Source of the DNA: a virus
Taxonomy: Duplodnaviria; Heunggongvirae; Uroviricota; Caudoviricetes
Direction: 5' to 3' (one strand)
IMG/VR virus record: IMGVR_UViG_3300014886_000120
DNA length: 64,000 nucleotides
Below the pieces are notes generated by a model. It made no database searches and was not told the DNA's origin. It worked only from the letters and a program-made list of their open reading frames with translations. Both the position numbers and the translations under genes were made by a program. This document shows positions 488 to 55,348 of the stretch, piece after piece. The number at the start of each line of letters is the position of its first letter. Position 1 is the first letter of the stretch.

Positions 488-856
488 TCAACCAAGAGCT
501 TTACCCATCTTGTTTTCACTTCTTGGTACCCATGTTAGAAGAATAGAGTATCCTCTTGATTTTAAGGTTTCTATTATAGACCACACCTCAACAGCTAGAC
601 TCCTAAGCTTTCCAGACTTGATGTGCCATAGATGGTTTAGCTGATTGATTACTACCTTACTGTCAGACAATATTTCTATCTCCTTGTCGTTCCCTTCTTT
701 CATCACATACTTTAGAGCCAGGAGTACAGCTCTGTATTCAGCTTCATTGCCAGTCATAAATTTGGTTCTATATTCTATCCTCACCTTCTCATTGTCCTCT
801 ACATAATATCCAAACTTTGGTCTATATCCTCCAGAACCGTCACAGTAAATCTTCAA
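488..856 (-). CDS. rnhA: RNase HI-like ribonuclease H
   Basis: IYCDGS, GNEAEYRAL and LSDSK..INQ motifs match the DEDD catalytic core of type-1 RNase H. TTG start with upstream GGAGGTG. Confidence 0.6.
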   Translation of the reverse strand: MKIYCDGSGGYRPKFGYYVEDNEKVRIEYRTKFMTGNEAEYRAVLLALKYVMKEGNDKEIEILSDSKVVINQLNHLWHIKSGKLRSLAVEVWSIIETLKSRGYSILLTWVPRSENKMGKALG

Positions 857-858
857 GC

Positions 859-1140
859 TTACAACACCTCCATAATGTACACTTCTTTAGCTCTCTTCAG
901 TACATCTGGGTCTACAAGGCTTAAGTTTTTATGACCTTTCTCAAAGTAGTTTATCAGAGCCCGTATTGCAGCCCTCTCAAGTGCCTTTTCAGAAAGGTTA
1001 AGTGTGGTGGTTACAAAGCCACATCTTGAACATACCAGCCATGGTATCTTAGTACTCAATCTTCTATGCTTTTCAAACATTATCTCAAGGTTGTTTTTCT
1101 TACATAGTGGGCATATAATACGTGTCTTGCTGGTCTTCAT
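859..1140 (-). CDS. small zinc-ribbon protein
   Basis: CPLC...CSRC pairs. Terminal codons GAG GTG TTG carry the SD for the downstream rnhA-like gene. Confidence 0.4.
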   Translation of the reverse strand: MKTSKTRIICPLCKKNNLEIMFEKHRRLSTKIPWLVCSRCGFVTTTLNLSEKALERAAIRALINYFEKGHKNLSLVDPDVLKRAKEVYIMEVL

Positions 1141-1170
1141 ATCCCCACCTCTGGCTTGCTCAGAGTGGAG

Positions 1171-1371
1171 CTATATCTCTTCCTTTATCCAGTAGCTATA
1201 CCCACATTCCTTACATTCCCAAGTTGTCTCTTTATACTCTGTAGCTCCTTTGTATGCTCCCTTAACAACCTTGTAGTATCTTACAGCTGAGGAGCTAAGC
1301 TCAACATGACAATAGGGACAGTAATACTTACCATTTTTCTCTACTGGTTTAGGCATACTATCACCCCTCAA
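1171..1371 (-). CDS. small zinc-ribbon protein
   Basis: CPYC...CKEC motifs, 66 aa. Confidence 0.35.
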   Translation of the reverse strand: MRGDSMPKPVEKNGKYYCPYCHVELSSSAVRYYKVVKGAYKGATEYKETTWECKECGYSYWIKEEI

Positions 1372-1582
1372 AGAAGTATCTTAAGATATCGTCCAGAGAA
1401 GCTAACATTGTTCCGGACGTTCTCTCATAGTCACTTAAGTCAGAGAGAAGAGCTTGTATGGTCCTGTTTATCCTTCCCTTCTCTTCTCTGTCCTTGGTTC
1501 TAGCTCTCCTCTTTTCCAGCTCTTCTATGTTGTAGATGATTATCTCTCTATAGGTTCTGTTTCTCCAGTTATTCATTCCCAT
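1361..1582 (-). CDS. hypothetical small basic protein
   Basis: 73-aa ORF in the operon; basic and charged. Confidence 0.3.
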   Translation of the reverse strand: MGMNNWRNRTYREIIIYNIEELEKRRARTKDREEKGRINRTIQALLSDLSDYERTSGTMLASLDDILRYFFEG

Positions 1583-1586
1583 CCCT

Positions 1587-4130
1587 CTACAAGTAAAAGT
1601 CTAGTCTGGACTTTCTCTGTGTATATGTCGAATTGAATACTTCCTTCCATGACGTACCTATCATCTCCAATATATCTTCTACTTTGTTCTTTATAGTCCT
1701 TACTAACATCCTGTCCCTGTCTATCTCTATTGGATATTCAGCTCTTTCAAGATCTGAAGCTTGAAGGAAACCAGCAACGTCAGAAAATATTTCTTTCTTT
1801 ATATGTCTCTTAGACCCCTTCTCTACAGTCAGGTTAAGAACTATCCGTTTGTATCTGTATGGTTTGATGTACACATAAAAGAACCTCTCACCTTCTTCAA
1901 TGTCTAGACCCAGTACTTGTCTTGCAAACTCAAAAGCTTTCAGAGTTACAATAGCCTTGTCATAGGAGTCCCTTGGTTGTCTAAGGATGCCAGTGATAGC
2001 TATTTTCTCCAGTGGATACTTACTCATCATCTCTATCTCTCTTATCACATACTTCTTGATATCCTCTATGGCACTGTCATTAAACACCATGTCAAGTACG
2101 TTACGTTGTACTATCTCAGTAAGCTCAGACTGATCCCTTCTTACCAGCTCTATCCCCTTGTATATTTTCCTGCCATCCACTGTTAGTCCAGCATAACGTT
2201 TCTTTGTGAATATTATTATCCTCTTGAAGTAGTCCTCTATGTCCAGTCTAAAGCTGGACGGATCAATGCTCCACTTCTCTGATATGAACTTATGGAGCTC
2301 CCGATGGATCATGTCCCTTATCCTTGCAGACTCCTCTTTATAGTCCTTGGTTTTAAGTACAAAAGCTATTGAGTCTGTGTCTCCAAATATCACTGTATAC
2401 CCGAAGCTCTCTATTATTTCCTTGATCTTCAGGAGCAATGTTCTACCAATGGTAGTGATGCTCTCAGCTATCTTATAGGAATACAATCTGGCAGCTGGGA
2501 ACTTCTTTTCTACATTACCACTGAAACCATAGAAGCCGTATGAACCATGGACAATGGACTTGAGAGCTAGCCTTCTCCTCTTTAGTCTCTCCACCATGTC
2601 AAAGTCCCTTTCCTTCTTAGCTTTCTCTATCTGTCTTTTGTTTTCTTCAAGTAGGGGAGCTAGCTTGTCAAGTATCTCTACAGTCCAGCTCTTCTCTACC
2701 TCAGGTCTAAGGTATTTCCATTCCGGTGTTACCTCTATTTCTCCAGCTACCTCATCGAATGTGTTCCAGCCAATGTTGAAGCTCTTTATTATGTTCACAT
2801 ACATTGAGCTGAAGTCCATCAAGCATACACTGTTGTATATCCCTCTCTTAGCCTCAAACACTGTAGCTCCAGAATACGACCTCCTAACCTTCTCTATAGG
2901 TCTGGTTCTGAGAGCTATCTTTCCATGAAGCAACCTTAGATAGGAGATGTCAGCCACCCTTGAGGGGTACATGGCATCATTGAAGTCCAGACCGGAGAGT
3001 CTCCTAACAGTGTCAACATATTCTATAAGGTCAAGCTCCTTGTCCAGGTTCTTGATTAAGAGTACGTCTCTAAGGTTGTAGTATATAACATCGAGATATG
3101 AACTGTCCCATACCTTGTCAATGTCAGTATACAGTCTCCTTTTACCATATCCAAGCTCCTTCCTACTAATAGCATCCAGAGTCTGGAACTTCCTTCCTCC
3201 TACAACTATGGAGTATATCTCGTTAAGGTCAAGGTAATGGCATCCCCCTAAGCTTATCTTTTCAGCTGACCATGTAGAGACTGTTCCAATGGAGGAAAGC
3301 ATCCTCACATCCAGCTTGAGCTTCCTCATACGTTTGATAAGGTATGCCATGTCAAACTTAGTAAACGAAATAATAAGGTCTGGATCTATATCTCTCAGAT
3401 ATACTAGGAAAGCTGAGAACATGTCTCTCTCATTTTCATAGTAATGGATATTCCTTGAGGAATACGAGCTCTTATCCTTTCTCCAGTAAAACACATGGTA
3501 TTCCCCCTCAAAGCTATCGTAGCATCCTATGATTATGACCGGAACTTTAGCTTTGTCCTTGGGTACCTTACCGTAACACTCAATGTCTACAAAAAGCTTC
3601 CTTAATGGAGGCTCATAATCCAGAGTACATGCCCTACAGTATTTGTCCGACCATACAATGTATCCCTTAGTCAGCTCAGGATGTTTAAGACACCATTCCA
3701 GATATTTGTCATCTACCTCTACACCGTCAGTAATCCCCTTGTCTATTACATACCTGTATGGAAACTTGATGTCAGCTTCATAGCTTTCTATCCCCCTGGG
3801 ATACCGTTTACTACGTCTATTATACAATGCTACCTTTAGCTCCCTAACGTACTTTGGCAGCTTGGTTATTATCTTGACTCCAGGAGCTGAAGCATCTAAC
3901 AGCCTGAATACTTCTCCATTGGGGCCCTGATGTTCTATCCTCTTTATCTTCTCCAGCTCCTCTGGTCTCCATTTAACATGTTCATAGTCCTCCCTTCTCA
4001 TATAGAAATAGGGTTCAAAGCTGTCGTCTCTTATAATGTATCTCCTGGAGCTTCTGTCTCTACAGAATATGTAGATAACCGATGAACCATGCTCTATCCT
4101 CTGATCAACAGCTGTCACTGCAAGCCTCAT
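1587..4130 (-). CDS. polB: family B DNA polymerase with 3'-5' exonuclease
   Basis: Exo I VDIECY, Exo II FTKFDMAYL, Exo III YYNLRD. Motif A DFSSMYVNII, motif B KSIVHGSYGFYG, motif C IFGDTDS. 847 aa. Confidence 0.9.
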   Translation of the reverse strand: MRLAVTAVDQRIEHGSSVIYIFCRDRSSRRYIIRDDSFEPYFYMRREDYEHVKWRPEELEKIKRIEHQGPNGEVFRLLDASAPGVKIITKLPKYVRELKVALYNRRSKRYPRGIESYEADIKFPYRYVIDKGITDGVEVDDKYLEWCLKHPELTKGYIVWSDKYCRACTLDYEPPLRKLFVDIECYGKVPKDKAKVPVIIIGCYDSFEGEYHVFYWRKDKSSYSSRNIHYYENERDMFSAFLVYLRDIDPDLIISFTKFDMAYLIKRMRKLKLDVRMLSSIGTVSTWSAEKISLGGCHYLDLNEIYSIVVGGRKFQTLDAISRKELGYGKRRLYTDIDKVWDSSYLDVIYYNLRDVLLIKNLDKELDLIEYVDTVRRLSGLDFNDAMYPSRVADISYLRLLHGKIALRTRPIEKVRRSYSGATVFEAKRGIYNSVCLMDFSSMYVNIIKSFNIGWNTFDEVAGEIEVTPEWKYLRPEVEKSWTVEILDKLAPLLEENKRQIEKAKKERDFDMVERLKRRRLALKSIVHGSYGFYGFSGNVEKKFPAARLYSYKIAESITTIGRTLLLKIKEIIESFGYTVIFGDTDSIAFVLKTKDYKEESARIRDMIHRELHKFISEKWSIDPSSFRLDIEDYFKRIIIFTKKRYAGLTVDGRKIYKGIELVRRDQSELTEIVQRNVLDMVFNDSAIEDIKKYVIREIEMMSKYPLEKIAITGILRQPRDSYDKAIVTLKAFEFARQVLGLDIEEGERFFYVYIKPYRYKRIVLNLTVEKGSKRHIKKEIFSDVAGFLQASDLERAEYPIEIDRDRMLVRTIKNKVEDILEMIGTSWKEVFNSTYTQRKSRLDFYL

Positions 4131-4339
4131 AGTTCCTCAGCTATCCTTTCCTTCAGATATTCTATATATCCTTTCTCAAGCATTTCACCCAGTGCTCTGG
4201 GGATGTTAATGACTATGAGGGGAGGAGAGGAAGGCTTGAGATATAAAAGAAGATCGTAGATACCTTCCACTTTGGAGTCATCAAAGTATACAGTAGCAGT
4301 CATACTCTCTAGAGTGTCAAGCTCAATCCTTATCTTCAT
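4127..4339 (-). CDS. small hypothetical protein translationally coupled to polB
   Basis: ATGA overlap with polB start; 70 aa. Confidence 0.35.
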   Translation of the reverse strand: MKIRIELDTLESMTATVYFDDSKVEGIYDLLLYLKPSSPPLIVINIPRALGEMLEKGYIEYLKERIAEEL

Positions 4340-5226
4340 CGTATCATCCCATGCTTCCTAAGGGTGGAGTATACCCATTCCATGAACACGTCCTTGATTA
4401 CATCTACCATTAGCTGTCCAGGTCTCTCTAGCTTCACAGCTCTAGCTGCATCCTGGTATTCTTCTCTTGTAAGCCTGACATGGTACATCTCACCTTTAAC
4501 CCTTTGTTCAGCTTCCTTTATCTTCTTCTCAATCTTCTCTGTTGTGTATTCATCAAGTGTGCCAGCCTTGGCTTCCTTCTGGATGTCCTCAAGATCTCTA
4601 TCTGTCAGCTTGCCTTTAGCTGCAGCTTCAGCAAGCTTGAGAGCAGCTTCAGGCTTGTTCTGGAATGCTGGACTCTTGAGTGTGGAGATAAGCAGCTTAG
4701 TTCTTCTTTGAGACTGGGTAAGCAGCTCTTCCTCTATAGGACTGTCCTTGACCACCTCAGGCAGCTTCTCGTATCCTGCCCATTCACTTATTGTCCTAGG
4801 AGACACCCCTATGATGTCAGCTAGCTCCTCCCTTCTAAGGTTTCTCATAGACTTGACAAAGAAGTACCTGTCTCTATTTGTCAACGAAAGTGAAAGCTCG
4901 TTTTCCAGGAATGAACGTATCCTGGCTTCAAGCTCACTCATCTTCTTCCTTAGACAAAACACCTTTGGTAGTCCAGCCCTCAGAGCTGCCCTATATCTTC
5001 TTGATCCTTCTATAACCTCCATGTTCTGGTCAAGTATTATAGGCCTGGTGTTTATACCAAGCTCCCTCATCGAAGTAACCAGTCCTTCTAGGTCAAGCTC
5101 TGGCAATGTCTTCCTGGCATTGTATGGTGACACTCCCTTTATCTCTTTAGGGTCTATAAATAGTATCTCCCATTCTTCCTCTTCCCTCTCTACATCCCAT
5201 TTCTTTCCTGGTGGTATCAAGCTCAT
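4336..5226 (-). CDS. ParB N-terminal-domain (ParB/Srx-like) protein with C-terminal HTH
   Basis: IEGSRRYRAALRAGLPKV resembles the ParB GERRxRA arginine box. C-terminal ADIIGVSPRTISEW HTH. Confidence 0.5.
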   Translation of the reverse strand: MSLIPPGKKWDVEREEEEWEILFIDPKEIKGVSPYNARKTLPELDLEGLVTSMRELGINTRPIILDQNMEVIEGSRRYRAALRAGLPKVFCLRKKMSELEARIRSFLENELSLSLTNRDRYFFVKSMRNLRREELADIIGVSPRTISEWAGYEKLPEVVKDSPIEEELLTQSQRRTKLLISTLKSPAFQNKPEAALKLAEAAAKGKLTDRDLEDIQKEAKAGTLDEYTTEKIEKKIKEAEQRVKGEMYHVRLTREEYQDAARAVKLERPGQLMVDVIKDVFMEWVYSTLRKHGMIR

Positions 5227-5639: not shown

Positions 5640-6648
5640 AGTATATTGACTGGCTAGTTCCAGGAATCTTGAAGTACCCCTTAATGAAAACCACTATCGA
5701 CTTTGTGCCTCTCACTGTAACCTCTCCTAGCTCCCCAAGGATTATCAGTCTATCAGCTTCCTTGAATTTTACCGGTAGATGGTTAGCCAGATATCCTACA
5801 GCCTTGTATTCCTCTCCTTCCATCTCATCGTCCAGACCAATAATGTTCTGTTTGTCTTCCCTGAATATTATGCTGTACACATCTGCCTCTATGAACACTG
5901 GCTCTCTGTTCTCTCTACCAGCTCTCTTGAAGTGTGTGAGATAAACCATCTCTAGATCATTTAGCCTATAGATCTCCTTACCACAGTTCCTTATGAACCA
6001 CTCAAGCTCCTCTGGTGAAGGCTGAACTTCAAGCTTCCTCAGTCTAGTTACTGAGCTAGCCGACAGCTCATAGTGTGGAAGCTGTCTATCCCCTGCCCTG
6101 TCTATGGCCCTGAAGCAGTACACAGTCCCAAGCTCTGGGCTTAGGCTGGTAGCAGCTTTGTCCCAAGCCTCAAGCTTCAGGAACTTTACTCTGGACTTGT
6201 CTATCTGCCTACCGGTGCTACCTATACCATAGTATGTCCTATGATCTACTCCCTCTATAGGCTTCATGTAAGTGTCCCTGTCTTCCCTGTAATCTAGCCA
6301 TGTATTTGGATCTGGATGGTACTTAGCTTGTTCCTCCTTAGGCATCCTCTTTATCTTGGCAATCATCTGTTCAGCTGTGTTCTGTAGACCACTCTCTCCT
6401 ATGAAGAAAGCTGAGTACATTATGCTGGGAGACAGTATGCTACCCTCTTCTTTCTCTAGTCTGGCCTTTAGCTTCCTATATGCTAGCTGCAGACGTTTAA
6501 TGTTGCTCTTTACCTCTGGATATTCCTCAGCTACTACAGGTAGGTATTCAAGCATTTCCTGTCTTAGCTCGTCTACACTCACACCAAACTGCTTAGCTCG
6601 TTTCTTGAGTCTCTCCATTATCTTTTCAGGTATCTCTACACTCATCAC
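5632..6648 (-). CDS. hypothetical protein (338 aa) in the replication/recombination module
   Basis: Long ORF with no recognised motif. Confidence 0.4.
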   Translation of the reverse strand: MMSVEIPEKIMERLKKRAKQFGVSVDELRQEMLEYLPVVAEEYPEVKSNIKRLQLAYRKLKARLEKEEGSILSPSIMYSAFFIGESGLQNTAEQMIAKIKRMPKEEQAKYHPDPNTWLDYREDRDTYMKPIEGVDHRTYYGIGSTGRQIDKSRVKFLKLEAWDKAATSLSPELGTVYCFRAIDRAGDRQLPHYELSASSVTRLRKLEVQPSPEELEWFIRNCGKEIYRLNDLEMVYLTHFKRAGRENREPVFIEADVYSIIFREDKQNIIGLDDEMEGEEYKAVGYLANHLPVKFKEADRLIILGELGEVTVRGTKSIVVFIKGYFKIPGTSQSIYFA

Positions 6649-6714: not shown

Positions 6715-7377
6715 TCAAGTATGAAAGACATTATAGATACGTTCACCTCCCTTACCAAGCTTTCTACCATTAACATTCAGGTTGACCAGCTCTTCTCTTG
6801 ACATGGAGACTATCTCTGAAAGCTTATAGTTGGAGGCTAGACAAGCAGCTGTCTTCCTCCCTATCCTTGGGATACATGACAACACATCAAATGTTATTTC
6901 TTCTATGGTACGTTCCCTCTTGACAGCCTTTACTGGTCTGAGGGCAGCTGGCTTGTTAGATTTCTTGTAGTACTCAAGTAAATCTTTAATGAAATCATTT
7001 TCTGAACCTACATGTATGACTGGAACCTTGAAGGAATAGTAGCTTATGACTTTCTGTGTCCTAAGGAATGAATCCAGATCTACAGGTACAAGTCTCTTAC
7101 CTATCCTCCTTAAGGGAGGCCTTCTTGGATATACCCCAATAAGATATAGAAGGGGCTTGTCACAGCTCTTGGATAGCATGTATAGCTGCTCATAAAGCCT
7201 CTTGTTCTGTACTGAACTTATGAAGTCATCTATGGTCTTACGTTCTATTACAAGGGACTCCCCTATCTGGTAGTCTCCTACTTCAAGCTCCCTAACCTTC
7301 ACTTCTATACCCATAGCCCTGAGCTTAGCCGGTATGTGCTTGGGTTCTCTGCTGTCCACTAGTATTGTCATGTCCAA
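6715..7377 (-). CDS. xpf: XPF/Hef/Mus81-family ERCC4 nuclease with C-terminal (HhH)2
   Basis: ILVDSREP...GDYQIG...VIERKTIDD is the ERCC4 signature. C-terminal IPRIGRKTAACLA...ELVNLNVNGRKLG is a tandem HhH. Short crenarchaeal-type architecture. Confidence 0.7.
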   Translation of the reverse strand: MDMTILVDSREPKHIPAKLRAMGIEVKVRELEVGDYQIGESLVIERKTIDDFISSVQNKRLYEQLYMLSKSCDKPLLYLIGVYPRRPPLRRIGKRLVPVDLDSFLRTQKVISYYSFKVPVIHVGSENDFIKDLLEYYKKSNKPAALRPVKAVKRERTIEEITFDVLSCIPRIGRKTAACLASNYKLSEIVSMSREELVNLNVNGRKLGKGGERIYNVFHT

Positions 7378-18729: not shown

Positions 18730-19377
18730 TTATGTTTCCCTAAACAGCCATCTGAGCACAAAGCTGGAACCCTTCTTCCTCCCTGTAAGTAGAAACTCTA
18801 TGGCTGACTCAGCTAGAACAGATGAAGCAAACAACACTAGAGTGGTTGAAAGTGGATAGCTGCATGGATCTACATTTATTGTTTCTGGGTCTGGGGGAGG
18901 AAGATAATTACTAGCCCATTTTACCTCTCCATACTCAGCCTTCCCGTTTATACCTCCAAACAAACATGGTACATTCAGCTTGCATGCATATTCCTTCATT
19001 AGCCTTCTGGACTCATAGTTGTCAAACGTACATATGGTAAGATCTCCAGAAGACAGTACCTCTTCAACATTGCTTTCATTCACTTCTACAAAGTATGTCC
19101 TAGCTCTGGCTTTGTTTATCTGGTAAAGGATGCCAGACAGAGCTCTTACCTTGGACTGGTTAAGGTTCTCTAAAGTAAAGGCTTGGGTAGATGTGTTGTG
19201 CATCTCTACACGATCTTTGTCATACAAAACAAAGCTTGACACTCCACTTCTAGCCAGGATTACTGAAGTCCAGCTACCAAGTGCCCCACAACCAGCTATA
19301 GTAACTGTCTTGTCCCTGAGCTTACTGAACTGTCTTCCCCTATGGAGCTCCTCATGAAGGAACATTCTAGAGACCAT
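18730..19377 (-). CDS. ThiF/MoeB/E1-like adenylyltransferase
   Basis: RQ motif (HRGRQFSKL), Rossmann IAGCGALGS, LYDKDRVEMHN and FDN motifs of E1-like enzymes. 215 aa, with no CxxC zinc motifs. Confidence 0.65.
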   Translation of the reverse strand: MVSRMFLHEELHRGRQFSKLRDKTVTIAGCGALGSWTSVILARSGVSSFVLYDKDRVEMHNTSTQAFTLENLNQSKVRALSGILYQINKARARTYFVEVNESNVEEVLSSGDLTICTFDNYESRRLMKEYACKLNVPCLFGGINGKAEYGEVKWASNYLPPPDPETINVDPCSYPLSTTLVLFASSVLAESAIEFLLTGRKKGSSFVLRWLFRET

Positions 19378-19454
19378 TCAATAGTCCCTCCTAATGAAGG
19401 TTATATTGAAACCTCACATTTTCTGATACATTATGATATATCTCAAACTTCATG

Positions 19455-19471
19455 TATATCCGAGAGATATA
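19455..19471. promoter_or_regulatory. motif 1 copy
   Basis: TATATCCGAGAGATATA in the intergenic region upstream of the E1-like gene. Confidence 0.45.
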
Positions 19472-19518
19472 CAACATGCTTGACCTTATAGAGGAGAGCT
19501 ATGTTACATACCAGACAG

Positions 19519-19803
19519 TCAAAACACTGTACTCTCGTATGTAAGATGTTTATCTAGGACACACCAGTATATCCATTCTTTAAACTCAGCTATTTTCTCA
19601 CAGTCTATACTCACAGCAGAGCCTTTAGATTCATTTTCAATAGAACAATCAAATATTCCTAAACAGCCGTTTCTCTCATGTACCCTTAAGAACTCTTTCT
19701 TAGGTTCAAATATTAGAAACCCATAACGTGTCATTACCTTTACAGCTTTCTTAGTCTCTATCAAATTTATAAGCTCTCCATTACTCCATGTCTTGCTTCT
19801 CAC
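19519..19803 (-). CDS. hypothetical protein
   Basis: 94 aa. Confidence 0.3.
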   Translation of the reverse strand: MRSKTWSNGELINLIETKKAVKVMTRYGFLIFEPKKEFLRVHERNGCLGIFDCSIENESKGSAVSIDCEKIAEFKEWIYWCVLDKHLTYESTVF

Positions 19804-20146
19804 TTCTTATCGTCTCATCCAGGTAAGGGTTCTCCCTCAGTATAGATTCAGCTAGTCTATCTAGCTCACTAGCATAATCTCCCCAATCCTGCTCATCCAA
19901 GTAAGCTCTAAGAATTGGAATCAACAAGCTTGTTCTAATTTTACAATATTCAGGATATTCATTTTTTGACATCTCTTTTAGTCCTCCATTGGTAACTGTC
20001 TCCTTTACGGTAAAGTAGAGTATGGAGAAATACCATAAGCACAAGTTTCTTGTACCAAGCCTTAAGGCTTTCTTTATAGACACACTTGGTGGCAGTACAG
20101 TAGCTTCACCCTCATGATCACTGTACCACAGTATCTTTGTTTCCAT
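19781..20146 (-). CDS. hypothetical protein
   Basis: 121 aa. Confidence 0.3.
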   Translation of the reverse strand: METKILWYSDHEGEATVLPPSVSIKKALRLGTRNLCLWYFSILYFTVKETVTNGGLKEMSKNEYPEYCKIRTSLLIPILRAYLDEQDWGDYASELDRLAESILRENPYLDETIRSEKQDME

Positions 20147-20148
20147 TA

Positions 20149-20430
20149 CTATAGCTTCACCCTTTCTCTTAGCTTCTTCAAGAGCTTAACCTGATAGCTG
20201 TCAGGATGTTCCAGGGACTCTTCTGTTATGAAGTAAGGACACTCTGCACAGTATATCCCATCGTATATGCCCCATGTTCTACCTCTACGGATTAAGCCTA
20301 CTGGACACATTTCGTCTCCAGCCCTAACCTTGACTATCCTCTTTCTAGCCATAGACTCATTCCAGCATATCCCAGTCTTGTTCCCATCCATCTCTATTGT
20401 CTGTTCCACAAAACGCTTGATCTTTATCAT
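20149..20430 (-). CDS. hypothetical protein
   Basis: 93 aa with Cys pairs. Confidence 0.3.
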   Translation of the reverse strand: MIKIKRFVEQTIEMDGNKTGICWNESMARKRIVKVRAGDEMCPVGLIRRGRTWGIYDGIYCAECPYFITEESLEHPDSYQVKLLKKLRERVKL

Positions 20431-20441
20431 TTCTATCCTCT

Positions 20442-21257
20442 CTAGTAGTAGTCATTCTCATGTAGGCCCTCATAAAACTGGTGTTTCACTATAACTATAG
20501 AAGCTAAATCGAAGTCTCTGTCTCTTCCAGATAAGCAAATCCCACTGTCCCTTACAAATAACGAGCTGTCGATGAGTACATTGTCAAGCCTGTCTTTGTA
20601 TCTATATTCTACCTTGTATAAGTCTTTACCCCAGTCCTTCAACGATACAAGCTCAGCTCCTACCAGCCTAAGTGAATATCTAACAAGCTTTTCTAAAGGT
20701 GGAACCATAGAGTCAGCTATAAGCTTCAGGGCCTTCTTGAGCTCTCTTGGTACAGACAATTTGTCCAGAACTGAACTAGTGTCCCTGATGTTCTTACTCT
20801 TAATCTCTTCAAGGACACTCCTAGCTTCCTCCACTATACCATAGTCATACTTACGATGATAGTTCTCAAAGAACAGGTAAGTCCGTTTGCCTCTGTATAC
20901 TCTTGCTACCACTGGTTCCAAGACAGACAGAGATGGACTGAACAGTAATGGTAGGGGAGCTGAGTATGGCACATGCCTCCTGTAATGATGCTCTATAGAA
21001 GGGATACACATCCAGTATCTCGTCCTAAGAACTGGAAACACATACACTCTCGGGAGCTCAAGCTTGTCATAGTACTCATTTCTTTCATGTATCTCTGCTT
21101 CTCTCTCTGGTACAGCATATATACCGTTCTCTCTAAACCATAAGACTCCACAATTTTCTGGTGTACATCCCTTTAGGATGAACTCTCTGGCTCCAGACCT
21201 GTCAAGCTTAACTACCTTCCTGCTTCCAGGAAGCACATGACTGATAAACAATTTCAT
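20442..21257 (-). CDS. hypothetical protein (271 aa)
   Basis: Long ORF; ATGA overlap with the upstream zinc-finger gene. Confidence 0.4.
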   Translation of the reverse strand: MKLFISHVLPGSRKVVKLDRSGAREFILKGCTPENCGVLWFRENGIYAVPEREAEIHERNEYYDKLELPRVYVFPVLRTRYWMCIPSIEHHYRRHVPYSAPLPLLFSPSLSVLEPVVARVYRGKRTYLFFENYHRKYDYGIVEEARSVLEEIKSKNIRDTSSVLDKLSVPRELKKALKLIADSMVPPLEKLVRYSLRLVGAELVSLKDWGKDLYKVEYRYKDRLDNVLIDSSLFVRDSGICLSGRDRDFDLASIVIVKHQFYEGLHENDYY

Positions 21258-21436
21258 AGCTCACCAGCAACCATACATTCATAGCTGCAATAAGTCACTA
21301 TCACATACCCTATAAGCTGTCCATGATGATCCAGGATAGGCTCAGAATTTACATTTATACCCTTAAGACGTTCAACCCTCTTGCCACAATAATGGCATAG
21401 GAAAATAGACTTGCTTTCTTCAGGCATAAACCTCAC
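21254..21436 (-). CDS. small zinc-finger protein
   Basis: CHYCGK...CSYEC; terminal GGT GAG CTA TGA embeds the SD and start of the next gene. Confidence 0.4.
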   Translation of the reverse strand: MRFMPEESKSIFLCHYCGKRVERLKGINVNSEPILDHHGQLIGYVIVTYCSYECMVAGEL

Positions 21437-21448
21437 TTTGGTAAATGT

Positions 21449-21733
21449 TCAGGCATCCCTAAATTTCCTAGCTAGACTCTGTCCAGAAGAAAAGCTAGGC
21501 CAGAACAATATCCCTCCAATATAGCTACCGATGTACTTAAGAGGGTTATACTCCAATGGAACACCTTTAAGCAAACCTATGAATGATGCAGATACCATAA
21601 GCACTAGAAGGGTCAGCCCAAGGATAATAGCCAGTCTCCTTTTCAGCTCGTATATGAATCCCCCAATTACACCTATGCACATCCATTCCATTGTCTGGAC
21701 AAGATTATAAAAAAACAGAGTCCATAGCTCCAC
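21449..21733 (-). CDS. small membrane protein
   Basis: Multiple hydrophobic helices. Confidence 0.35.
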   Translation of the reverse strand: MELWTLFFYNLVQTMEWMCIGVIGGFIYELKRRLAIILGLTLLVLMVSASFIGLLKGVPLEYNPLKYIGSYIGGILFWPSFSSGQSLARKFRDA

Positions 21734-21736
21734 TGT

Positions 21737-22174
21737 TTACCCCTCATTTAAACGTACTTTCATTGCACCCAGATCTTTAAGGGATATGGCAAACACCAGG
21801 TATTCACCTTTCCTCCTAAGGTAGACATGTTCTAAGCCACACTTCAGACACTTACCAGTGTCTCCTTTAGTTAGATGTGAGTACGAAGAATGAAACAAGA
21901 CGTTAGAACTGCACCTGTAGCATTCTATTGTGTAGTAATAGTCATCAGGAGTGAGAGCTCCAAATGGATCATCGTCTATCTCCACACGTTTGGACTTGAG
22001 CTTAGTGTGATACTCCATCATTGAACAAAAGTTGTCATCAAAGAACTTACATCTCTTACATACGTCATGTGGGAATGAACCGAACAATCCTCTCCTGGAG
22101 CTAATGGGACATTTACCAACCACCATAGTCACTGTTTTCAGCTTAAGGGGTCTAGAAACTAGGCGTGTCTTCAT
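21737..22174 (-). CDS. zinc-finger protein
   Basis: CKRCKF...CYRC...CLKCG. Confidence 0.35.
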   Translation of the reverse strand: MKTRLVSRPLKLKTVTMVVGKCPISSRRGLFGSFPHDVCKRCKFFDDNFCSMMEYHTKLKSKRVEIDDDPFGALTPDDYYYTIECYRCSSNVLFHSSYSHLTKGDTGKCLKCGLEHVYLRRKGEYLVFAISLKDLGAMKVRLNEG

Positions 22175-22213
22175 GTTTACACCTGCTTATACGTAATTAA
22201 ACACTGCCCATGT

Positions 22214-22471
22214 CTACTTGGGCTTACTACATAGCTTGCTATTGGGGAATTTACCCTTGTCGTACACACCTAAGCTTGGTATCCATCCACAATTGATACA
22301 CCTAGGTCTTCCTGGACATCCCAGCAAAGACGCACTAATCAAATCCACAGGTATGGATACCAAGTACCCTCCACATTTTGGACATGTCCCTAGAATGGCA
22401 GCTTGGGTAACATAGCCTCTTCCGTCAATAAATACAGGGCCAATACCAGGTATGAAAGACATTTGTACCAA
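22214..22471 (-). CDS. small zinc-finger protein
   Basis: CPKCGG...CINCG. Confidence 0.3.
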   Translation of the reverse strand: MVQMSFIPGIGPVFIDGRGYVTQAAILGTCPKCGGYLVSIPVDLISASLLGCPGRPRCINCGWIPSLGVYDKGKFPNSKLCSKPK

Positions 22472-22615
22472 GACAGATATACACCTCCTATGACAGGAAT
22501 TTTACTCCCCTCTTACATTTTGGACAGTACCAGCCTCTAAGTGCATCCTTATGGAACAAAGGCTTAAGGCTTGTTTTGCACCTTGGACATTTCCTTGACA
22601 TATGCTCCTCAGTCC

Positions 22616-22837
22616 TCACTGAGAGTTCATAAGTGCCCCTAGCCTGCTTCTGATGCTGTTCATCTTAGCAATGTGTGTCATGGTTCTTCTCTTGAAGAAT
22701 GAGCTGACACCTTTTAATGGTTCATGCTTCATAGACACCAAGTTTAGTAGAGTAGCTACTTCATGATCAAACCTTAGCTCTTCAATTATTGAATCGATTT
22801 CACAGAGTACATTCACTTCTCCAGTCTTATCCTCCAT
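22616..22837 (-). CDS. hypothetical protein
   Basis: 73 aa. Confidence 0.3.
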   Translation of the reverse strand: MEDKTGEVNVLCEIDSIIEELRFDHEVATLLNLVSMKHEPLKGVSSFFKRRTMTHIAKMNSIRSRLGALMNSQ

Positions 22838-22878
22838 GTGTGTTTACACCTCCATCTTATCTTAAAATAGTAGAGAGG

Positions 22879-24333
22879 TTATTTTGAAGATATCCAGTAC
22901 ATAGGTTTCTTAGTATACTCTGGCCTGGTAGGTGGGACAGTACTCATTATCTCAGCTACAACCCTGGATGGAGAGCTCTCCCCTATCAATGCAACTATCT
23001 GGTCTACAGAATACTGGTCTACCTTCTCTATTGTCACTCTCTCATAGTTTATACCAGCTCTCTCCAGTCCTCTCCTGAAGTACGAATCTCTGCCAGTATT
23101 GATTCCCAGAATTATAACCTTTGGCTTGAAGGTAAGTTTGGAGTATTCATCAACAAACCTTGGAGGATGGTTCTCAGCTTCGTCGGTTATGAGAACCAGA
23201 GTGTCACATGTATCATTGAGCATCCTCATGAGCTGCAGTCCAGCTCCCAGTGGTGTCCATCCTCCAGTCCTTAGCAGAGAGAATGCTTCCCTCCACCCGG
23301 TAGGTGAATAGTCTACTGGAACTACCTTGACTGGACTCTCTCCAACTGCATATACTGAGGGAGGCTCCTTACATGCCAGAGTCAATGCAGTAGCTAGCAT
23401 TCTTCCAGCTTCGATGGCTGGTTGCATAGAGCCAGAGACATCAATGTGTATGGACACTCTAACGTCTAGCTTGCTGGTGTTCCTGGACTTTAGTACTATG
23501 GTGTTCTCAAGAAGCTTAAACAGCTCGTATGGCACCTTAGCTGGATCAAGATAGGATAGAATGTTGAGTATCCTTGATGCACTTACCCGTTTATCACTAA
23601 GAGCAGCTTCTATCTTACCCTTTATGATGTCCATGTTAGGCTTAATAGCTCTGAACCTACCAAGCATGTTTAAGGACTGTAAAAGCTCATTTGGAGTCAT
23701 TCCCTTTATTAGAGCTCTCAGTATCTCTGGAGTCCTTACCTTGATAGTTGTCAGAGCTATGTAGGATGGAACCGGAAGCTTACTGAGTATCTCAGCTACC
23801 CTATTGGGGTCTTCCTCCTCTCTAAGCTCTCTGAAAGCTTTCCTAACGGTTCCAGTCCTCTTGAACAGCTCTTCACCTATAAGCTTGAAGTTAGGATTAG
23901 ATGATCTGTCTGTAGGAATGTGTAGGGCTCTCACAATATATAGGAGTTCCTTCTTAGAACGTAGAATGTAGCTAACAAGCCTCCTATAGCTAAGTTCAGC
24001 TAAGTAATGTTTCACAGCTGATCTAAGACTTCTGGTCTTCCTTGCATGATAGACAACTTGATAGACTAGCCTAAGTGGTAGCTTCTGGAGTAGAGCCCAT
24101 CCAATATCTCTCAGCTGGCTCTCATCAGCTTCCATGAGTGTCTTTACGAAAGCTACCTTGTGATCTCTGACAGTTCCATTCTCTATGTACCAGCTGGCAA
24201 ATCTGGAATAGAATAGAGGATTAACATCCTTGACCTGTCTATGAACCCCAAATATCTCATCCAGATTGCCATGTGGACAGTTCATGATAGCAGAGAACAT
24301 CTGGAGGTTAGCTGATGCTTGTTCGTTACTCAT
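22879..24333 (-). CDS. vWA-domain protein with helical N-terminal region, possibly Ro60/TROVE-like
   Basis: C-terminal MIDAS motif HIDVSGSM...GGWTPLGAG...LITDEAEN. About 290-aa alpha-helical N-terminal region, 484 aa total. This matches the TROVE+vWA layout. The TROVE call is an inference. Confidence 0.55.
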   Translation of the reverse strand: MSNEQASANLQMFSAIMNCPHGNLDEIFGVHRQVKDVNPLFYSRFASWYIENGTVRDHKVAFVKTLMEADESQLRDIGWALLQKLPLRLVYQVVYHARKTRSLRSAVKHYLAELSYRRLVSYILRSKKELLYIVRALHIPTDRSSNPNFKLIGEELFKRTGTVRKAFRELREEEDPNRVAEILSKLPVPSYIALTTIKVRTPEILRALIKGMTPNELLQSLNMLGRFRAIKPNMDIIKGKIEAALSDKRVSASRILNILSYLDPAKVPYELFKLLENTIVLKSRNTSKLDVRVSIHIDVSGSMQPAIEAGRMLATALTLACKEPPSVYAVGESPVKVVPVDYSPTGWREAFSLLRTGGWTPLGAGLQLMRMLNDTCDTLVLITDEAENHPPRFVDEYSKLTFKPKVIILGINTGRDSYFRRGLERAGINYERVTIEKVDQYSVDQIVALIGESSPSRVVAEIMSTVPPTRPEYTKKPMYWISSK

Positions 24334-24346
24334 AGCTAATCCCCTC

Positions 24347-24363
24347 TATATCTCTCAGATATA
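24347..24363. promoter_or_regulatory. motif 1 copy (inverted spacer)
   Basis: TATATCTCTCAGATATA, 14 nt upstream of the vWA/TROVE-like gene start. Confidence 0.45.
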
Positions 24364-24599
24364 GTCTATCCATAAACAGCTCTTGGCCTAACAAGGATAG
24401 CCTCTTCTGTCTTGTCTATACAGTACTCATTGCTGTCAAGCTCTATGTTGGCTACTTCACTAACGTAGCTAAAAATCTCCTCGTCACTAGCTTCCTTAAG
24501 GGAGCTATCCACTTTAAGAGAGGTACTCTCTCCTCTACTAACTATCCTAAGCTCTACTTCCGGCAACTTATCACTCTCCTTACATTTTATATTTTGTCT

Positions 24600-24940
24600 A
24601 TCCTTTCCATGGACAGTCTATAAAACATGGGGGATGACCAGAATGGAATTGGGCCCGCCTTGACTTGTGTGGAAGTGCCAGGAGCTATCCCTGCACCCGA
24701 ACTGCACAGTTTGTAAGCTCCTAGCTTGCCCACACCTTTAGTCTAAGCCGGGTAGTCAAGTCAGGTAAGATGCGGGACTTACGACCTGGAACGTAGACTA
24801 AGACAGGCGGGATTTAAAGTGTGAAAGTGGTGGGAGCTAATTTTGGAACCCTGATAATTGTTCAGGTTTGTAAGCTCCCACCAAGTCACACCTTGGTTTC
24901 TGACCTTTTGGGTAAGGATGGGATATTTAAGCATTTCGGA
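24600..24940. ncRNA. candidate structured ncRNA(s), strand undetermined
   Basis: ORF-free and clearly GC-richer than its surroundings. Tandem hairpins at 24680-24722 and 24831-24880 have 7-8 bp stems (AGGAGCT/AGCTCCT versus GGGAGCT/AGCTCCC) with compensatory base changes. A further 9-bp stem pairs 24737-24745 with 24794-24802. No canonical tRNA T-loop. Confidence 0.35.
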
Positions 24941-24943
24941 GCT

Positions 24944-25273: not shown

Positions 25274-25274
25274 C

Positions 25275-25291
25275 TATATCCCTCAGATATA
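25275..25291. promoter_or_regulatory. motif 1 variant
   Basis: TATATCCCTCAGATATA. Confidence 0.4.
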
Positions 25292-25297
25292 GTTGAG

Positions 25298-31513: not shown

Positions 31514-32473
31514 TTATCCTTCCTCTCCATCTCCTTCTTCTCCAGGTAGAGCATAGATTATAGGTGTTCCATGACCGTCTGTAGACAATATTAGCACCTT
31601 AATGTTTGGTGATATCTCCTTCAGAGCTTCAAGGTACAGATACAGCTTGGTAATCTCTTCAGTACTGTTCAAGCCAGCTGCTTTAGCTATCATCTCAATA
31701 GACTCTCTGGTGGCATTGGCAACTATCAACCTAACCTGGGCTTCAGCTTGGGCTATCCTTATCTTCTGTTGAGCTTCTGCATCAGCCAATATAACTATAC
31801 GTTCCCGTTCATACTCAGCTTGTATCTTCTTCTGTTCAGCTACCATCTTGTCCTCAATAGCTTGCATGTACTTGTCTGGTAGAGCAATGTTCCTTAGGTC
31901 AAACTCTAGATGGATTAGAGCTCCCTGGAGTGACACAGTATTCCTAAGGGCATCAAACACAGCTTCCTGGATAGCCAATGCCACAAGCTCTCTCTGGGTT
32001 ATCATCTGGATGGCTGTAAAGTTCTTGGTAACAAACCGTATGGTCTCTCTCACTGTAGAAGCTATAGCTCTGTCCTCCCAGTCAAGGTTTGGATATGACA
32101 AGTATAGAGACCTGAGCTTACTTGGATCCAAGCTCCATCTAACCATAACATCGATAGTAGCTTCAAGCTGGTCTGAAGTAAAGCATTTGATAGCTGGATA
32201 TTCTGCATAGGGGTCACTTCCATCACCCCACATGCCTATGCTTTCAGTAGCATAATAAATGAAGACCACGTACTGCCATGGCATCTTGACAAACCAACAT
32301 GGACCAAGCACAGGTTCCGATACTCCTCCAGTCATTGGGTCTATTACCAATGCTCCATATCCGGTATCTACTGATACAAACATGGTAGCAAAGAACACTC
32401 CAAGAGCTATCCCCCCTATTATCAGGGATACCAACAGAAGTGCTTTCATAGCTTTCAAGTACAGTTTCCTCAT
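31514..32473 (-). CDS. SPFH/band-7 (prohibitin/HflC-like) membrane protein
   Basis: N-terminal TM helix, SPFH core, and a coiled-coil EQKKIQAEYERERIVILADAEAQQKIRIAQAEAQ. Confidence 0.65.
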   Translation of the reverse strand: MRKLYLKAMKALLLVSLIIGGIALGVFFATMFVSVDTGYGALVIDPMTGGVSEPVLGPCWFVKMPWQYVVFIYYATESIGMWGDGSDPYAEYPAIKCFTSDQLEATIDVMVRWSLDPSKLRSLYLSYPNLDWEDRAIASTVRETIRFVTKNFTAIQMITQRELVALAIQEAVFDALRNTVSLQGALIHLEFDLRNIALPDKYMQAIEDKMVAEQKKIQAEYERERIVILADAEAQQKIRIAQAEAQVRLIVANATRESIEMIAKAAGLNSTEEITKLYLYLEALKEISPNIKVLILSTDGHGTPIIYALPGEEGDGEEG

Positions 32474-39018: not shown

Positions 39019-39263
39019 AAGAGCTCGTTATGCTCTAGATACTTTTTCTCCCACTTCCCTCTCCTGATGCATATGTACACCTCTCTAGACACAAACTTTC
39101 TAATTGCAGCTAAGATTTGTTCTCGATATGTACGTTTAGAAAGGCCTATAACTATATTGCCCTCAGCATCCAACGTTATATACTCAAGCCTGGCAAACAC
39201 AGTTATCTCGTCCATTCTAGTCCAACCTCCTATAATGAATAGTCCTTCATGGACACTACACAT
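39015..39263 (-). CDS. hypothetical protein
   Basis: 82 aa; 4-nt overlap with the downstream gene. Confidence 0.3.
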   Translation of the reverse strand: MCSVHEGLFIIGGWTRMDEITVFARLEYITLDAEGNIVIGLSKRTYREQILAAIRKFVSREVYICIRRGKWEKKYLEHNELF

Positions 39264-40516
39264 GGAAAGTATGTAGGTATCCTACTAGGATCTCCCTTCT
39301 TGGATACTACCCATATTACGGTAAGATTTGAAGGTACCTCTCCAGGTAAAGGAAAGACACCATAAGCATCTGTAAAGTACACTAGAACTTTGGCTCTAGG
39401 CCTATTCTCCCTTATCCATCGAAATATAGGTCTAAAGTCAGTTCCTCCTCCACCTTTAAGTCTGGCAACTCTCAAATCATATTCTGAAGCTACCTTGTTA
39501 GCATCGTACAATCTAGAGTCACAGCTGAAGAGGAGTATCTCTACACTCTTGAAAGACCTTAATATTCCAAGAAGCTCACCGATCCCGTCTTTCACTTCTT
39601 CAGATGACATTGAGCCAGAAGTATCCACACAAGCTATGAGTTCAACCTTCTCTTTCTCAAGAGATGGAAAGTAGATATCAGTCACTATAGACTTCCTACT
39701 TGGTCTTCTATAAGAAAAATTGAAGGGAATACTTCTGGTCACTAAACGGGCCAGTAGCTCTCTCCATGAAAGCTTGGGCTCTACTAAATCATCTATCAGC
39801 CTCTCCATTCCAAGTGGTAGCTTGCCTATTATCTTAGCTCGTTCAAAAGCATCCTTGACTATTCTTCTCCAGTTCGGGACATGCTTCTCTGGCTCCAAGT
39901 CAGCTAGCTCCTCTGGTAGTCCGAGTTCTCTGAGTTTCTGTTTGTCTAGCTTACCATTTGGGCCTCTAGCCTGCTCAAGCTTGTCTCCAAAGATATGCCT
40001 ATCCAAGCTACCTTGTCTACAGATTACCCCGTCCTTAGACACACGTGGGATGGTACCTCTGAACGGACACTTACTACAGTCCAGTGTACACATTCTGGCA
40101 GAACGAAGTGGATCATCAGGTAGCTTGTCATATATCTCTTCCCATGCCATGCCCTTCCATCTCTCGTCTATTAGAGCTCCTCTAGGAAGAACAAACTCTC
40201 TTCTGATAATCAAGTTGAGAGCTAAGTCCATGGCAATGTTAGCCTTATATGGGTCTCGTTTACCCAGTCTCTCTAGATGCCTAAGCATGACATGTCCAAC
40301 TTCATGGGCTAGTACCCCTTTGAGCTCTTCTATGCTCAGCCTCTCTACAAACTCTTCTGAATAATAGACAGTTCCAAGATGGTTCACTCCCATAGTAGGG
40401 AGAAACGTACACTTGACAAAATTAAGGTGGAGAACAAGAGTACCCCAGAAAGGCTGTCTAGACAATAGCTGTATCCTAGCTTTTGATATCTTCTCTTCTG
40501 GAGACAACTTAGGCAT
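39230..40516 (-). CDS. HExxH zinc-metallopeptidase-like plus vWA domain protein (MoxR partner type)
   Basis: N-terminal GVLAHEVGHVMLRH (HExxH). Central Cys cluster CTLDCSKCP...C. C-terminal vWA MIDAS ACVDTSGSM. Confidence 0.6.
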   Translation of the reverse strand: MPKLSPEEKISKARIQLLSRQPFWGTLVLHLNFVKCTFLPTMGVNHLGTVYYSEEFVERLSIEELKGVLAHEVGHVMLRHLERLGKRDPYKANIAMDLALNLIIRREFVLPRGALIDERWKGMAWEEIYDKLPDDPLRSARMCTLDCSKCPFRGTIPRVSKDGVICRQGSLDRHIFGDKLEQARGPNGKLDKQKLRELGLPEELADLEPEKHVPNWRRIVKDAFERAKIIGKLPLGMERLIDDLVEPKLSWRELLARLVTRSIPFNFSYRRPSRKSIVTDIYFPSLEKEKVELIACVDTSGSMSSEEVKDGIGELLGILRSFKSVEILLFSCDSRLYDANKVASEYDLRVARLKGGGGTDFRPIFRWIRENRPRAKVLVYFTDAYGVFPLPGEVPSNLTVIWVVSKKGDPSRIPTYFPCVVSMKDYSL

Positions 40517-40533
40517 CTACACTACCTCCTAAG

Positions 40534-41748
40534 TCATTCACCTACAATGTCAAAGTATGGAGACAGCCTTGCAACAAATGGAGAGTACTCCTTTATCTCA
40601 AGTATGTTCCTCTTGAAGAAAGCTTCGTCAGTTGACTTAACCAGCTTGAGTAGGAAGACAGCAAACTCAGCTGTTAGTCTATTTGCAAATACGACTATGC
40701 TTCTCAGAGTCTCTCTCGTCTTGTGATGAATGAAGTAATCCACCAGGTTAGTACACAAAGTATAAAGCAAGTCCAGATTCTCTGGTATAGGCATAGTGTC
40801 TGGGTTCCTAATGAACTCCTCTACTGGAGGTAACTTTCTCCTGGCCTCTAGAAATGCCCTGAACATCTCAGCTACGTAAGTTCCCACCCTACCAGAGACA
40901 TACAGCATCACTTCCTCTTCATCGTACACTCCCTTAATGAGGTTGCTAGCTCTTTCCCATGATCTTGGAGTAGCAAAAGCTTTCTCTCTGTGTCCAGGCT
41001 TGTGGGTATACAGTGCTGAATTGTTAGTGTTGATGAAGCCTATTATCCTATGGTCTATGCCATGTTGTAGAGCCCATTCTGTCCAATCCTCTACAGAGGG
41101 AACTCCAAGCTCATACCAGCTGAACCTGTCATTGAGTGGATCTCCAAAGTCAAATGTAGGAGCTCCATCCAGAGGCCCTCTATTACCAGCTCCTATAACA
41201 ATGTACCCATCAGGTAGTGTGTAGTCTCCAAAACACCTGTCATTGATGAGCTCATAACATACTGCTTGGACAAGAGGTGGAGCCAGGTTGAACTCATCTA
41301 GGAATATAATTCCATGACCAGCATATGGCATCCAGCCAGGCTTGTTCCATTTAGTGATATAGTCTACTATCTTGACATCCTTGTAGTCATCTCTATCCAC
41401 GAACTGAGGTAATATCCTTACCGGTATCAGCTCAAATCTTCCCTTTACCTTTACCAGAGCATAATTATCCGGTAATCCCATTACTTCACCAGCATCTTTC
41501 TGGGCTATACGTTGGTCTACAAAGCAGAACTTGTCTACATGCTGGTTAGGCATCTTGGTCTCTATGAACTCAAGGCTGAGCTCTTGAGCCAGCTCCATAG
41601 CTGCATCCCTAGCTGTATAGCTCTTCCCTACACCTATAGGTCCCTCAATAAATATTGGTTCTTTAGTATAGTAAGCTCTCTTTATTATCTTCTTGAGCTG
41701 TTTATGGTTCACCTGGATGATATTGCCACTTCTTATGCGTTTACTCAT
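40534..41748 (-). CDS. MoxR-like AAA+ ATPase
   Basis: Walker A GPIGVGKS and Walker B IIFLDEFNLAP (MoxR has DEINRA); 404 aa. Sits immediately upstream of the vWA-peptidase gene. Confidence 0.6.
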   Translation of the reverse strand: MSKRIRSGNIIQVNHKQLKKIIKRAYYTKEPIFIEGPIGVGKSYTARDAAMELAQELSLEFIETKMPNQHVDKFCFVDQRIAQKDAGEVMGLPDNYALVKVKGRFELIPVRILPQFVDRDDYKDVKIVDYITKWNKPGWMPYAGHGIIFLDEFNLAPPLVQAVCYELINDRCFGDYTLPDGYIVIGAGNRGPLDGAPTFDFGDPLNDRFSWYELGVPSVEDWTEWALQHGIDHRIIGFINTNNSALYTHKPGHREKAFATPRSWERASNLIKGVYDEEEVMLYVSGRVGTYVAEMFRAFLEARRKLPPVEEFIRNPDTMPIPENLDLLYTLCTNLVDYFIHHKTRETLRSIVVFANRLTAEFAVFLLKLVKSTDEAFFKRNILEIKEYSPFVARLSPYFDIVGE

Positions 41749-51882: not shown

Positions 51883-51903
51883 ATCAAGATTACCTCCTCT
51901 TCT

Positions 51904-55104: not shown

Positions 55105-55121
55105 TATATCTGAGAGATATA
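55105..55121. promoter_or_regulatory. motif 1 copy
   Basis: TATATCTGAGAGATATA. Confidence 0.4.
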
Positions 55122-55348
55122 GTTCCTAGCTTATTTCTTCTTGAGTAGGTAATAAAGTAAATAGAAGATGTACCCCATAACCAGGACATGGAATAGGAAC
55201 ATTGGAAGCTTCACCATGATGGTAACTTTAACGTCATAAATGAGCATTATAAGAAGACATGATAAGTTAGTCACAAACAAAATAGACCATAGTAAGAGAA
55301 GTCTGAATAAGGTTTGAGAATCAGAGTTCATACTCAAGTCCTCTAAGC

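Follow-up and report, generated by a model that had tools for sequence, protein, structure and literature searches.

The window analysed here is the whole 64,000-nucleotide stretch of the tailed-virus record IMGVR_UViG_3300014886_000120 (IMG/VR; Caudoviricetes). At 22879-24333 it carries a gene for a 484-aa protein that is a true, very diverged homologue of Ro60 lying outside current family models, and two structured RNA modules are found upstream of this gene. Ro60/Y RNA particles have been studied as RNA quality-control machines and as autoantigens in lupus and Sjögren syndrome. The gene and the two domains of its product are located as follows.

22879..24333, minus strand: Ro60-like protein gene (484 aa, ATG start), identified by its open reading frame (ORF), by Ro60 profile matches and by full-length fold matches.
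23476..24333, minus strand: N-terminal all-helical HEAT/TROVE-like ring (approximately residues 1-286), with 19 helices that align to the HEAT region of phiLo and Xenopus Ro60 and no Pfam TROVE match.
22939..23466, minus strand: C-terminal vWA domain (approximately residues 290-465), with a weak VWA_2 match (E 0.01) and the residues D298/S300/S302/T360/D384 of the MIDAS (metal-ion-dependent adhesion site).

The first-pass annotation of this DNA had described a 484-aa ORF with a helical N-terminus and a complete vWA MIDAS, and had read it as the Ro60 architecture of a TROVE-like ring joined to a vWA domain. The ORF call, the alignments and an AlphaFold2 model built on 28 homologues (mean predicted local distance difference test score 85.7) agree with this description. 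In the model, residues 3-286 form 19 helices that are followed by an alpha/beta vWA fold at 293-465, and the MIDAS residues D298-x-S300-x-S302, T360 and D384 are all invariant in 28 close and 73 distant relatives. Searches with the single protein gave little: scans of NCBIfam, PHROGs and PADLOC returned nothing useful, phmmer against the PDB gave a chance match only, and a search of IMG/VR found only two loci. A collection of 5.8 billion sequences contained 27 relatives. The profile of 28 relatives matched D. radiodurans Rsr (3.4e-8) and human Ro60 (4.8e-8) in the PDB, and that of the 73 distant relatives matched human Ro60 (2e-17), Thermus phage phiLo Ro60 (1.9e-14) and Xenopus Ro60 (2.4e-13); the alignment to phiLo Ro60 covers query positions 22-394, the HEAT/TROVE part included. 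The Ro60 architecture was also borne out by the structure comparison that the annotation had proposed as a check, since the best 13 Foldseek matches were all Ro60 (template-modelling score, TM, 0.55-0.67 across ~500 columns) and the helical region aligns with the Ro60 HEAT region. The Pfam family vWA_Ro60 (PF25045) was matched by 17 of the 73 relatives (best E 4.8e-9), and the window protein itself had no match to it.

A profile search of 1.84 billion representatives of 50%-identity clusters placed 2,027 clusters in the family at E<=1e-3 and 399 at E<=1e-30. Those members whose records were consulted carry the labels 'hypothetical protein' or 'protein with vWA domain'. Among deposited phages, the sole record with a homologue of this family is LR756511.1, an unannotated 595-kb uncultured huge phage (285741-287240, 26.7% identity, E 7e-41); genes of the canonical Ro-like kind are present in 356 deposited phages, most of them actinophages.

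The region upstream of the gene contains the following RNA features, scored with two covariance models (CMs), R1 and R2.

24567..24943, minus strand: ORF-free structured region comprising module A, a central hairpin and module B (fold z = -5.7).
24816..24894, minus strand: Y-RNA-like module A (R1 81 bits, R2 72 bits; covariation).
24667..24737, minus strand: Y-RNA-like module B, of the same design as A (R1 65.6 bits, R2 56.6 bits).

An ORF-free, GC-rich candidate non-coding RNA had been claimed next to the gene. The minus strand of 24567-24943 indeed carries no conserved ORF, and its minimum free energy of -129.9 kcal/mol compares with -97.8 +/- 5.7 for shuffled sequences (z = -5.7); GC-richness is only moderate, with values of 0.45 and 0.56 for the two modules against ~0.41 for the window. 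The modules sit 330-560 nt upstream of the Ro60-like gene. Each consists of an outer stem (GGUGUG.../...CACAC), a short asymmetric internal loop and a 10-bp inner stem ending in GGAGCU, after which UACAAAC and a small apical hairpin follow. A TATA-like TTAAATAT lies ~30 nt before module A and a T-run after module B; read from these letters, 24567-24943 is probably one primary transcript, and we infer that the modules are expressed as stable small RNAs.

To search for this design elsewhere, a scan of our own for a stem plus TACA was discarded as too permissive (77 matches versus ~37 in shuffles), and covariance models were therefore used instead. R1 was seeded with five modules from the window and the related locus L001; the seed was limited to these because MAFFT misaligned a divergent module of L008 (L008p). 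R1 recovered three held-out L001 copies and also matched independent loci, including Chloroflexota genomes with a Ro60-like subfamily of ~30% identity, and on the whole window only modules A and B scored, the next match having E 0.43. R2, built from 13 hits of R1, found one to six copies upstream of the gene in most loci, and 21 of 25 non-redundant related loci had a match at E<=0.0015 (with filters off for the remaining loci). The first-pass expectation of a Y-RNA-type gene beside Ro60 is thus supported by two modules upstream of the gene and by their recurrence in related loci. Weaker antisense echoes of near-palindromic stems aside, all hits lie on the gene strand, save that L008 and L010 each carry one module per strand; in the unfiltered search, 16 of 16 hits were on the gene strand. 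Across 28 aligned sequences, 14 of 16 pairs showed compensatory changes, and 93.5% of cells were paired, a percentage that is inflated by fitting the alignment to the model, as the diversity of pair types is not. The covariation score was 0.679, compared with 0.234 +/- 0.02 for shuffles and <=0.19 for slid controls. Invariance extends to UACA and the C-G pair that precedes it, to a single G-C pair in the outer stem and to the C in the 3' loop ACUY; the G-A-G-C-U that ends the inner stem is nearly invariant.

Relatives carry the same module in variable numbers and with different apical parts. L001 has six modules around its Ro60-like gene, and L008 and L010 have two each. A tRNA-like domain is found in L001, L008, L010, L021, L024 and L035: several stems of L001, L008 and L010 enclose sequence that scores 46-54 bits as Rfam tRNA, and those of L035 and L008 enclose sequences with tRNA scores of 50.9-57.5 bits. 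In L035, a relative of ~27% identity, four modules show GCUUACA after the inner stem, two of them enclosing full tRNAs and one being YrlA-like. In the Chloroflexota copies a T arm, closed stem and D arm follow one another in the permuted arrangement that is typical of YrlA, and the YCCGAC of their 5' loop is only reminiscent of CGAA. Scores against Rfam YrlA (RF02553, gathering score 69 bits) were 29-42 bits for the relatives' modules and 32-42 bits for the Chloroflexota copies; genuine actinophage YrlAs beside canonical Ro60 genes also fall below the gathering score (mycobacteriophage Rizal, 36 bits; phage FuzzBuster, 33 bits).

Two of these loci show further features. The L001 module at 4623-4754 can adopt two mutually exclusive folds, either the long conserved stem or a tRNA-Ser(GCU)-like cloverleaf that uses GAGCUUACA as its D arm (ARAGORN; Rfam tRNA 53 bits). 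L004, a contig of a Chloroflexota metagenome-assembled genome (DAOTVE010000156.1), has 36 tRNA genes within 3.7 kb (536-4161), an array with a vWA gene and the Ro60-like gene directly downstream of it, and two weak Y-like module matches (4414-4546 and 5821-5949) flank the vWA gene.

The Ro60-like gene and the RNAs are also part of a conserved gene cassette, whose other members in the window are listed here.

24366..24566, minus strand: conserved small protein of 66 aa ending ...VRPRAVYG, a candidate ubiquitin-like or carrier protein, with homologues beside the Ro60-like gene.
20442..21257, minus strand: partner 'X', 271 aa, with an invariant Cys241 and G-x-D-x-DFD, and with syntenic homologues.
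18730..19377, minus strand: ThiF/E1-like adenylating enzyme, 215 aa, at the end of the conserved cassette (Pfam ThiF, 4.8e-26).

The order of Y-like RNAs, small protein (65-93 aa), Ro60-like protein, X (258-299 aa), sometimes a JAB protein, and ThiF/E1 recurs from the window (18730-24566) to relatives of ~27% identity, with the cassette at 229-4413 in L034, 3115-7451 in L035 and 965-4719 in L036. Homologues of the small protein in L001, L010, L035 and L036 all adjoin the Ro60-like gene and end in (R/H)P..(Y/F)G. Syntenic homologues of X were found in L001, L003, L008, L010, L034, L035 and L036, syntenic ThiF orthologues in L003, L008, L010, L034, L035 and L036, and a gene of the ThiF family in L001. 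The small protein and X both lacked Pfam and PDB sequence matches, and Foldseek gave X only weak beta-barrel matches (Mpa OB-like interdomain, E 2.6e-3, TM 0.25/0.43). The cassette suggests a ubiquitin-like or (sulfur-)carrier module coupled to the Ro60/Y RNA pair; because neither the small protein nor X can be assigned to a fold, we offer this as a hypothesis, in which the ubiquitin-like (Ubl) reading of the 66-aa protein is suggested by its size, its conserved C-terminal Gly and its E1/JAB neighbours.

Taken together, the fold and homology of the protein, the structure and covariation of the RNAs and the linkage of gene and RNA make it likely that the window encodes a diverged Ro60 of an archaeal tailed virus, with the upstream hairpin RNAs as its Y-RNA-type partners. 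Several observations weigh against this. The protein is only 13-15% identical in sequence to solved Ro60 proteins, and the Pfam TROVE search (PF05731) that the annotation had called for found no match to it at E<=10 and none to the 73 relatives at E<=0.01. An Rfam search of the whole window at gathering score gave nothing relevant, the two modules matched no Rfam family even at E<=10 in a search of 21.5-26.5 kb, ARAGORN found no tRNA in the window, and with no tRNA or YrlA match the two modules contain no tRNA-like domain. R2 misses the known YrlAs of mycobacteriophage Rizal and phage FuzzBuster (L032, L033) as well as the modules of the most distant relatives (L035), so that the link to canonical YrlAs and to the L035 modules is drawn from sub-threshold Rfam scores and from reading the sequences. 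To these may be added the fitting of the covariation alignment to its model and an archaeal host deduced from gene content. The CGAA bulged helix, the canonical Ro60-binding site of Y RNAs (PMC12135203), is absent by reading from both window modules. One alternative for the protein itself is a generic vWA protein of the CoxE/BatA or MoxR-partner kind with an unrelated helical N-terminus, its Ro60 likeness coming from the vWA domain alone. VWA_2 (E 0.01) is indeed the sole Pfam match of the single protein, and 14 of the 73 relatives match VWA_CoxE. We nevertheless rejected this identity, which the annotation had wanted checked, as highly improbable: the N-terminal ring is Ro60-like, and the neighbours are small ORFs, X and ThiF, with no MoxR or other AAA+ gene adjoining. 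The window does hold a MoxR-partner-type vWA elsewhere, in a second, unrelated system at 39230-41748, where a DUF2201 metallopeptidase and vWA-like protein lies beside an AAA+ ATPase with a weak Sigma54_activat/MoxR-like match.

By another explanation, the protein is Ro60-like but the modules are processing or stabilising stems of virus-encoded tRNAs, or tRNA-derived remnants, whose place near the gene would reflect nothing more than the clustering of tRNA and RNA-metabolism genes. The stems of L035 and L008 that enclose true-tRNA-scoring sequences (50.9-57.5 bits), the 36-tRNA array beside the gene in L004 and the missing canonical Ro60-binding motif in the window modules would all fit. We consider it unlikely, since stem, loop and UACA persist in both window copies and in several L001 copies although these enclose no tRNA; what is invariant in sequence belongs to the stem module and not to the tRNA part; linkage to the gene holds in 21 of 25 loci that span archaeal-virus contigs and Chloroflexota chromosomes; and in canonical YrlAs, too, a tRNA-like domain caps the stem. 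The cassette raises a different question, namely whether the main role of the Ro60-like protein is not classical RNA quality control but RNA recognition on behalf of a ubiquitin-like modification system that depends on E1. Its recurrence down to ~27% identity, with the Gly-terminal small protein, Ro60-like protein, X, (JAB) and ThiF kept together, speaks for such a role, which we regard as possible but doubtful given a small protein with no detectable similarity to known ubiquitin-like proteins, an X with no assignable fold, several small ORFs between the cassette genes of the window and no JAB gene found in it. A broader proposal, which we make only tentatively, is that there is an unrecognised branch of Ro60/Y RNA systems with a GAGCU-UACA code, which archaeal tailed viruses share with huge phages and with Chloroflexota and which is firmly tied to a minimal Ubl module made up of the Gly-terminal small protein, the E1-like ThiF, the JAB peptidase and the Cys-bearing X. 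If true, the Ro60-Y RNA particle would either direct or be controlled by one of two processes, Ubl conjugation or a Ubl-type transfer of sulfur to tRNA-like RNA.

Under the Ro60/Y RNA reading, the TROVE module would form a HEAT-type ring of helices that is closed by the vWA domain with its functional-looking MIDAS, and the two upstream hairpin RNAs would serve as its Y-RNA-type partners. By analogy with canonical Y RNA stems on Ro60, the ring's outer surface is the most likely docking site of the stem module, and such docking would leave the variable apical part free to recruit or mimic a partner, this part being a small hairpin in the window and a tRNA or a permuted YrlA-like mimic in relatives. 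We infer both this binding and the existence of an effector. The complex would probably act on structured or damaged RNA during infection, as suggested by bacterial and phage Ro60/Y RNA particles, and it could control entry into the ring and connect the ring with an RNA-processing enzyme of the host. A context of RNA repair and turnover is known for bacterial and jumbo-phage Ro60, and the RNA ligase, RlaP and phosphoesterase (Metallophos) genes that lie nearby in related contigs fit such a role. The known bacterial effector is polynucleotide phosphorylase (PNPase), which most archaea do not have, using the exosome instead; this is a further point against the proposed pairing in an archaeal virus, where PNPase would be ruled out for most hosts and the exosome would be a candidate effector.

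An archaeal virus-like element had been claimed from the sequence, and its gene content, though no proof, supports an archaeal tailed virus well. Nearly all genes of the window are on the minus strand. They encode a large terminase (TerL), a family-B DNA polymerase (PolB), a RadA/Rad51 protein with a helix-hairpin-helix domain, an ERCC4 nuclease, an ATP-dependent DNA ligase, ParB proteins and DNA methylases. In the phage collection, RadA matched haloarchaeal tailed viruses only, and the longest and most complete PolB matches were to haloarchaeal tailed viruses as well; related contigs encode PCNA, TrmB/HVO-type regulators and inteins. The ERCC4/XPF-type nuclease is encoded at 6715-7377 and an SPFH/Band-7 protein at 31514-32473. 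At 51124-53520, a phiEco32-like COOH-NH2 ligase (538 aa) lies beside a class-II glutamine amidotransferase (252 aa), a pairing known from phages. A dispersed palindrome also has a copy close to the Ro60-like gene.

24346..24364, strand not assigned: copy of the dispersed 19-nt palindrome CTATATCYGAGRGATATAG, placed 13 nt upstream of the start codon of the Ro60-like gene.

The palindrome occurs at ~18 sites in the window versus 0.14 expected (21 matches over both strands), among them 25274-25292, 55104-55122 and 60734-60752, often just upstream of start codons; candidate roles are an operator used across the virus, a terminator hairpin or a site of RNA processing.

These results bear on how widely Ro60 is distributed among prokaryotes, a range that has so far been mapped only through TROVE-annotated proteins. 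A large Ro60-like family (~2,000 clusters at 50% identity, E<=0.001) escapes this annotation, and its pairing with RNA recurs in related viruses and in Chloroflexota bacteria. The matching RNA family with its non-canonical recognition motif opens the co-evolution of the Ro60 ring and its RNA code to direct testing. Such a protein-RNA pair in an archaeal virus also raises the question of the effector, since hosts of this type rely on the exosome and not on PNPase. The E1/JAB/small-protein link has no counterpart in the accounts of Ro60 consulted here and could point to a new regulatory layer.

The annotation had considered an archaeal viral Ro60 unusual. There are precedents, in that viruses named Nidhogg (Helarchaeota/Asgard) have been published as encoding Ro60 (TROVE + vWA) and Borgs as having a core TROVE protein, so a Ro60 protein in an archaeal virus is not a first. 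Compared by published description, these elements and the window share a Ro60/TROVE protein in an archaeal mobile element. Published Nidhogg genes include a haloarchaeal-myovirus-related PolB, ERCC4, RNA ligase, several ThiF/E1-like genes and DNA methylases, and the window resembles these viruses, in repertoire only, in its PolB of haloarchaeal-myovirus type, ERCC4, Ro60, ThiF, methylases and TerL. Neither the Nidhogg nor the Borg reports describe a Y RNA or a Ubl/E1 linkage of Ro60.

The best full-length fold matches, phiLo Ro60 (PDB 9KOP/9L5Y) and D. radiodurans Rsr (2NVO), share the HEAT/TROVE ring and the vWA MIDAS, and Yrl1 and Yrl2 of phiLo lie directly upstream of Ro60 (PMC12135203), as do the Y-RNA-type genes of the window. 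Compared with these bacterial and phage proteins, the window protein is 13-15% identical, invisible to Pfam TROVE and shorter (484 aa versus 500-538), its family has a distinct signature (VRDHKV, LF, MTP-E), and the partner RNAs use a different conserved motif. With YrlA and Y RNAs (RF02553; PMC4201824) the modules share the long stem of the 5' and 3' ends that is broken by an internal loop, the tandem genes beside the Ro60 gene and, in relatives, the tRNA-like apical domain, which is permuted to T arm, closed acceptor stem and D arm in L021, L024 and L035. They differ in that the conserved element is GAGCU-UACA atop the inner stem, together with a 3' loop ACUY, rather than a CGAA bulged helix, in that the window copies have a small hairpin in place of the tRNA-like domain, and in that some relatives' modules enclose a complete, non-permuted tRNA. 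Given the absence of CGAA and the failure of R2 to find canonical YrlAs, the modules are therefore Y-RNA-like in architecture and genomic linkage but a distinct RNA class. This class was missed in 2014 because the survey of that year was confined to genomes with an annotated TROVE protein and did not cover archaea (Chen et al. 2014, PMC4201824). What is new relative to the known systems is thus the class of partner RNAs and the conserved linkage of Ro60 to a small Gly-terminal protein, X, JAB and ThiF.
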